A program made the translations under genes and the position numbers. This document shows, piece after piece, positions 15,162 to 15,412 of a stretch of 64,000 bases of DNA. The stretch is from Escherichia coli (lineage in GTDB: Bacteria > Pseudomonadota > Gammaproteobacteria > Enterobacterales > Enterobacteriaceae), in the NCBI RefSeq assembly GCF_003334305.1, contig NZ_QOWS01000006.1. The stretch is one strand, 5' to 3'. Position 1 is the stretch's first letter. Every line of letters begins with the position of its first letter. The notes under the pieces were generated by a model. It did not search any database and was not told the origin of the DNA. It worked only from the letters and a program-made list of their open reading frames with translations.

Positions 15162-15412
15162 TTATGTGATCAGGTTGTTATTATTTAGATTAATGTTTAA
15201 ATTTTTTAATTTCTTGATGTGAAGTTGATGAAAGTTTGAAAATTTAATATTCTTAATTGTTCCCTTCTTTATAAGAAGAGCAAGGTGCCATCATTAGAGT
15301 GACAGAGTAGGATGTTTCAGAGCATGCTTCAGATTGTTTTTTATTTCTCTGCAGTGTATTAATAATCATCACAGATAATTTCATTCTAAAATTACCTCTT
15401 TCTTTGAGTGTT

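Follow-up and report, generated by a model that had tools for sequence, protein, structure and literature searches.

How did the gene for a fimbrial usher come to break off directly in front of an effector-like gene on the Escherichia coli chromosome? The question is raised by contig NZ_QOWS01000006.1 of assembly GCF_003334305.1, of which a stretch of 64,000 nucleotides (nt) was analysed (the window, to which all coordinates given without a locus label refer). In this stretch, usher-like coding on the minus strand stops abruptly, and very AT-rich DNA separates it from the 3' end of a gene annotated as the type III secretion effector espX1. An earlier note on this DNA had suggested that the fimbrial operon was cut by insertion of the effector-like gene or by a deletion. 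We arrive, with a probability of roughly 90%, at the reading that the junction is a deletion scar inside a Yeh-like (Yhl) chaperone-usher operon located between nhaR and rpsT, beside espX1.

The region corresponds to the nhaR-rpsT interval of the E. coli chromosome. A 5-kb query (12500-17500) had a full or partial match in each of the 5,426 complete E. coli genomes, in several of them at 100% identity, for example in strain A7 (L001), and the locus lay between nhaR and rpsT in all genomes examined. In a spread sample of the BLAST ranking, many genomes aligned with the query as two pieces spanning approximately 7.44 kb, and the stretch between the pieces carried annotations for a full usher, for a chaperone and for a fimbrial protein. 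Three such intact-operon loci were fetched first, from O157:H7 Z1769 (L002), E8 (L003) and ST69 (L004). All three share the order nhaR, a 319-amino-acid (aa) adhesin, an 816-aa usher, a 227-aa chaperone, a 177-aa pilin, a spacer of approximately 300 bp, espX1 and rpsT, with all genes but nhaR on the minus strand. Aligning the junction to genomes with an intact operon, as the earlier note had proposed, located the breakpoint: the window matched these loci collinearly as two blocks, 12500-15158 and 15156-17500, between which the intact loci hold a further 2,445 bp. Viewed base by base, intact DNA reads ...AAAATCGTACC|GCCAT... at the left breakpoint and ...GTCAAACC|CGATTATG... at the right breakpoint, and the junction in the window reads ...AAAATCGTACCCGATTATG.... 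The two breakpoints have only ACC in common, and this 3-bp microhomology occupies positions 15156-15158 of the window.

The interval missing from the window (L003 3160-5604) consists of usher codons 1-373 (1,119 nt), the usher-chaperone gap (12 nt), the chaperone gene (684 nt; L003 4291-4974), the chaperone-pilin gap (49 nt), the pilin gene (534 nt; L003 5024-5557) and 47 nt of leader preceding the pilin start codon, in total 2,445 nt. The best NCBIfam matches in this interval were StcB for the 227-aa chaperone (E = 7.8e-99) and YehD for the 177-aa pilin (E = 3.3e-36). Neither a chaperone gene nor a major pilin gene was found in the window, as both lie wholly within the deleted interval; the earlier remark that the usher N-terminus, the chaperone and the pilin are missing is thus confirmed, all of them being part of the 2,445 bp present at the intact loci. 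The same 30-mer spans the junction in 10 of 10 fetched deletion loci. It occurs in none of eight intact loci (O157:H7, E8, ST69, 1604D011, ETEC1748, PKF4, FDAARGOS_1280 and IAI39), which hold both breakpoints in unrearranged form.

To the left of the junction the window retains usher codons 374-816 of 816 (13827-15158, minus strand), as determined by alignment to the intact usher and by NCBIfam. This remnant represents the 3' 54% of the gene and has neither start codon nor signal peptide. In the minus-strand frame, GGT (15158-15156, usher codon 374) is followed in the upstream direction by TCG and then by an in-frame TAA (15164-15162), which bounds the open frame one codon past the true homology breakpoint. 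It is this TAA that the earlier note had taken as the stop of usher-like coding, with coordinates correct to within a few bases. The end at codon 374 is not a natural gene end accompanied by a complete operon elsewhere; the complete operon occupies the same site in other genomes. The intact usher matches the NCBIfam usher subfamily NF011763 (826 model positions, cutoff 933 bits) over positions 1-826 with 1,493 bits, and the two longest uninterrupted parts of the remnant match positions 438-656 (E = 1.6e-102) and 724-826 (E = 3.7e-53). A full-length usher, with signal peptide, N-terminal domain and complete barrel, was not found in the window: only codons 374-816 are present, and these are interrupted by an internal TAG that replaces TGG at 14337-14339 (usher codon 647), a change seen in none of the eight further deletion alleles sampled. 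The Prokaryotic Genome Annotation Pipeline (PGAP) labels the fragment in A7 as 'incomplete; missing N-terminus; internal stop'. Among nine deletion alleles compared, all nine remnants begin at the same codon (GTILSDNY...) and measure 1,332 nt each. Since a fragment starting at codon 374 cannot be the ancestor of a complete gene, the polarity of the change is from intact to deleted.

To the right of the junction, 254 bp (15159-15412) separate the breakpoint from the espX1 stop codon (15413-15415). This spacer aligns end to end with L003 5605-5857, the espX1-proximal part of the intact spacer, starting 48 bp ahead of the first codon of the pilin gene, and represents both the remaining upstream region of the fimbrial operon (its presumed promoter and leader) and the 3' flank of espX1. 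The earlier description of some 250 bp of AT-rich non-coding DNA leading into the 3' end of the effector-like gene proved accurate: the spacer has a G+C content of 28.3%, and we consider it non-coding because its sole open reading frame (ORF), of 43 aa, is not conserved among alleles. This ORF (15253-15384, minus strand) was rejected as a gene, given that stops break it in most other alleles. The AT-richness is real, yet common to the whole nhaR-rpsT island (12818-17317; 35% G+C, compared with 51.5% for the window) rather than peculiar to the junction.

Base composition bears on the first of the explanations to be weighed, namely a secondary insertion of espX1 in place of the 5' half of the fimbrial operon. 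The G+C contents of espX1 (31%) and the spacer lie below that of the usher remnant (40%), and espX1 alleles are unusually divergent (93-96% identity), which would fit a foreign origin or frequent exchange. However, in all eight sampled genomes that carry a full-length operon, espX1 adjoins the pilin gene at this position, in this orientation and across the same spacer, and its length of 1,422 bp is the same in the window as in O157 and the other intact-operon genomes. A similar neighbourhood was observed in strain 24A16CRGN010 (L009:3740-10030), in which the whole island is present with an identity of only 83-90%; here a 490-aa 'type III effector' gene lies 243 bp from the pilin gene, an insertion sequence (IS), IS1, sits between the chaperone and pilin genes, and usher, chaperone and adhesin are frameshifted. 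The adjacency of espX1 and the operon predates the deletion, because it is found both beside intact operons and in this divergent copy. Moreover, from the junction rightwards the window runs collinear with the intact loci, and terminal repeats and target duplications are absent. Insertion of espX1 into the operon is thus an explanation to which we attach next to no probability. Judged from these alignments, espX1 is a bystander and did not cut the operon; of the two routes proposed in the earlier note, deletion stands and insertion of the effector-like gene does not.

Next to be considered are mobile elements. The earlier note had recognised no IS terminal repeats at the junction, and repeat searches agree: no IS- or integron-type inverted or direct repeats were found at 14900-15700 or at either breakpoint in intact DNA, where only short AT-rich chance matches occurred. 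Nor was a target-site duplication, an attC/attI-like site or a remnant of an element detected at the junction, at which native sequences are joined with only ACC in common. An IS- or integron-mediated deletion, in which an element inserted, deleted adjacent DNA and was then lost or left a trace, might be expected in a region where such elements are evidently active: BL21(DE3) carries the same deletion plus an IS1 inside espX1, K-12 has an IS1 flanked by 138 bp of the 3' end of the adhesin gene and by the rpsT upstream region, IS1 lies between chaperone and pilin genes in the divergent island copy mentioned above, and IS3 or IS5 is present in the region in some strains (IS3 for instance in A28 and 1916D18). 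Against this origin speak the direct joining of two native sequences without extra bases or an IS end, the negative search for IS-type inverted repeats, and the fact that adjacent deletions by IS1 keep the IS in place, as K-12 shows. We therefore regard mediation by a mobile element as highly improbable. The clean 3-bp join instead points to illegitimate, RecA-independent recombination or to replication slippage as the probable mechanism of the deletion.

Deletion and intact alleles are both widespread. A 300-bp query centred on the junction was matched in one piece by 2,425 of the 5,426 complete E. coli genomes (approximately 45%), including O26, O111, O121 and BL21, and the deleted 2,445 bp were present, at a coverage of at least 80%, in 1,203 genomes. 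Genomes of phylogroup B2 carry a different cassette at the nhaR-rpsT site. In the B2 strain FDAARGOS_1265 (L005:9376-12816), for example, genes for a glycoside hydrolase of family 31 and a major facilitator superfamily transporter replace the fimbrial/espX1 island between nhaR and rpsT, and an OmpK/sulfatase module is located upstream of nhaA. From this distribution and the uniform junction we infer that the deletion allele is old and common and goes back to one event.

Several observations sit uneasily with such a simple history. The usher remnant has 81 variable sites, 20 of which vary within the deletion group as well as within the intact group, and these fall in tracts. The deletion allele of YJ6 is intact-like from remnant nt 79, which is the first group-distinguishing site and lies near the junction, to approximately nt 490, and that of E62 is intact-like at remnant nt 165-342. 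The spacer of the window is 99.2% identical to that of the intact-operon strain ETEC1748, compared with 92-93% identity to BL21. Finally, the substitutions between the remnants of the window and BL21 comprise 12 synonymous and 3 non-synonymous changes, a ratio unlike that of a long-dead pseudogene unless the changes were imported from functional alleles. If the same deletion had arisen more than once, at a recurrent hotspot, rather than once with subsequent inheritance and recombination, then the mosaic backgrounds, the intact-like tracts close to the junction in YJ6 and E62, the 20 polymorphisms shared with the intact group and the likeness between the window and an intact-operon strain on the right flank would all be accounted for. 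Yet the breakpoints offer 3 bp of microhomology and no longer repeats, which makes a base-identical repetition improbable, the ten sampled junctions are identical over 30 bp, and recombination in E. coli readily yields such mosaics. Recurrence thus appears unlikely, and the mosaic background of a deletion that presumably occurred once can be explained by homologous recombination between alleles.

That the locus is a recombination mosaic follows from the nearest relatives of the window, which differ to the left and to the right of the junction. In comparisons of the window (15159-17317) with L002, L003, L004 and L006, espX1 and its flanks differ between strains by 4-8%, and the adhesin and usher DNA by 1-2.5%. 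Third codon positions account for 52% of the sites whose variation is confined to the deletion group. Since recombination has brought in variants from functional alleles, neither the ratio of non-synonymous to synonymous polymorphism (pN/pS) nor the codon-position counts demonstrate selection on the remnant.

Together, these data suggest the following course of events. The ancestor would have carried, on the minus strand, rpsT, espX1, a spacer of approximately 300 bp, and the genes for major pilin, chaperone, usher and tip adhesin, with nhaR convergent on the far side. One event of illegitimate recombination at the ACC microhomology would then have removed 2,445 bp and fused the remaining 254 bp of upstream region directly to usher codon 374. 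From that point on, the pilus would no longer be made, as pilin and chaperone are gone and the usher has lost its signal peptide, its N-terminal domain and the beginning of its barrel. The leftover usher and adhesin genes would drift as pseudogenes beside an intact espX1, and the deletion allele would later have been shuffled by homologous recombination and eroded further by IS1 in BL21 and K-12.

Decay after the deletion differs from strain to strain. Relative to the intact 319-codon gene of L003, the tip-adhesin gene of the window lacks 1 bp near 13675 and carries a CAG>TAG stop at 13174-13176. These adhesin lesions are strain-specific, other strains carrying different ones or none; among the sampled deletion alleles the adhesin gene is intact in most, and the usher remnant is an open frame in eight of nine. 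Adhesin genes are also broken next to operons that escaped the deletion. In O157:H7 Z1769 the adhesin (L002:856-1816) is frameshifted in an A run near codon 100 (A8 versus A7), the rest of the operon being intact, and this run could be a slippage-prone site; the adhesin of ETEC1748 is frameshifted too, despite a full operon. A further stage of decay was seen in strain HH97 (L008:5050-5400), in which the identical 30-mer junction is flanked by no more than about 100 bp each of usher and recognisable spacer, espX1 has been lost and nhaR is left in truncated form. The gene espX1 itself is intact in the window and in all eight intact-operon genomes and is annotated as frameshifted in five of eight other deletion genomes (L011, L012, L013, L015 and L016), in whose lineages it may be decaying alongside the fimbrial operon. 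The locus forms a clear series of decay, from the intact operon through the 2,445-bp deletion and the IS1 in espX1 (BL21) to the IS1-bounded 138-bp remnant (K-12), and it shows how cryptic chaperone-usher operons erode.

The scar also has a bearing on annotation and on surveys of virulence genes. Many of the 2,425 genomes that carry it keep an intact yhlD-type adhesin ORF and espX1, and none is predicted to build a pilus, so that presence/absence calls based on the adhesin or on the usher fragment would overstate Yhl fimbriation. A more speculative reading is that the frequency of approximately 45% reflects selection for loss of the Yhl pilus in A/B1-type lineages, with the adhesin kept through assembly in trans by the paralogous Yeh chaperone/usher and transcribed from the retained upstream region. 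It is suggested by the open remnant in eight of nine alleles, the mostly intact adhesin and the largely synonymous differences between the window and BL21; we consider it very unlikely.

The coordinates of the genes in and around the island were taken from the PGAP annotation of A7, which is identical over this stretch, and transferred at an offset of +9499. The core gene nhaR forms the left flank of the island (11918-12817, plus strand; L001 2419-3318) and the core gene rpsT its right flank (17318-17581, minus strand; L001 7819-8082). Between nhaR and the usher remnant lies the pseudogene of the tip adhesin of the Yeh-like/Yhl operon (yhlD-type; 12856-13814, minus strand), which PGAP describes in A7 as 'fimbrial family protein', 'frameshifted; internal stop'. 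According to PGAP (WP_000181238.1 in A7) and the ORF list, espX1 is intact with 473 codons (15413-16834, minus strand). PGAP gives the neighbouring gene this name in every genome examined. With the EspX1 protein, Pfam returned only a sub-threshold pentapeptide-repeat match (E = 0.77) and NCBIfam no match; the name espX1 rests on annotation.

Scans for regulatory and RNA elements returned little. In a promoter and terminator scan of 15000-15600, match counts did not exceed those in shuffled sequences; one sigma-70-like match fell within the spacer, on the minus strand (15209-15180). A weak terminator-like hairpin with a T-rich tail (15175-15156, minus strand) spans the deletion junction and exists only in the deletion allele; it is probably fortuitous. 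Searching 12500-17800 against Rfam at a permissive threshold gave three sub-threshold matches, none of them in the spacer, and no family reached its threshold. One of the three, a SAM-V riboswitch match at 16927-16992 (plus strand) in the AT-rich DNA between espX1 and rpsT, scored 30.3 bits against a gathering threshold of 41 (E = 0.059) and is most likely due to chance.

How, then, does this locus relate to known fimbrial systems? Wurpel et al. (2013; PMC3559732), who classified ushers by phylogeny and locus position, list in their Table S2 a gamma-4 'Yeh-like' type with the usher tags Z0022/ECs0022 (O157), ECIAI39_0021 and ECUMN_0019, together with ECBD_3597* in BL21 and 0019-0022* in B1 strains. 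By position, tags 0019-0022 fit our locus, which lies approximately 20 kb from the start of genome records, and the listed tags also agree with the strains in which the intact or the deleted form was found. The intact alleles share the four-gene architecture of this type (pilin, chaperone, usher and tip adhesin), YehD and StcB as the nearest models for pilin and chaperone fit a relative of Yeh/Stc, and BL21 and the B1 strains listed for the published type are strains in which we found the deletion. By its gamma-4 Yeh/Stc usher and its fixed position, the locus in the window is classified as a remnant of the Yeh-like/Yhl operon and not as a functional member, since of the usher only the 3' 54% survives and the adhesin gene is broken. 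A literature search for the locus names 'loc1' and 'Z0022' in combination with chaperone-usher returned no papers.

The type has since been renamed Yhl (yhlABCD), with a four-gene architecture, and the receptor-binding domain of YhlD has been solved (8V9V) (Sci Adv 2026; PMC12778044). A search of the intact adhesin against PDB sequences gave no match at E<=10, the set searched apparently lacking 8V9V. According to the same study, approximately one in eight E. coli genomes has yhlD, and nearly all of these belong to phylogroup E. In our data, adhesin-homologous DNA within the 5-kb region was present in 3,590 of the 5,426 complete genomes, with a full 319-codon ORF in many deletion genomes (BL21 and O26 among them); the difference in frequency probably reflects search thresholds or the genome sample.

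For the region around nhaAR, the passages of Lescat et al. (2014; PMC4182557) compared here describe 'fragmented or conserved' modules of fimbrial/adhesin and type III secretion system effector genes downstream of nhaR, of low G+C content and with IS elements, which were gained, lost and fragmented across phylogroups. The locus follows the same pattern of gain, loss and fragmentation; the base-level breakpoint, the 3-bp microhomology and the frequency of the scar are given here and not in those passages. With the EspX family the neighbouring gene shares its PGAP name, and espX1 lies outside the lesion. What we describe is a known locus in a known disrupted state; new are only its precise breakpoint, the microhomology there and the frequency of the scar. 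The scar is an ordinary pseudogene remnant, not a gene insertion. Wurpel et al. (2013; PMC3559732) count approximately two to three disrupted chaperone-usher operons per genome. Cryptic operons of this kind commonly lose their function through deletions, frameshifts or IS, as in K-12 and O157, and the Yhl operon shares this fate; here, however, the lesion is a clean internal deletion carried by approximately 45% of complete genomes, and not an IS insertion or a point frameshift.
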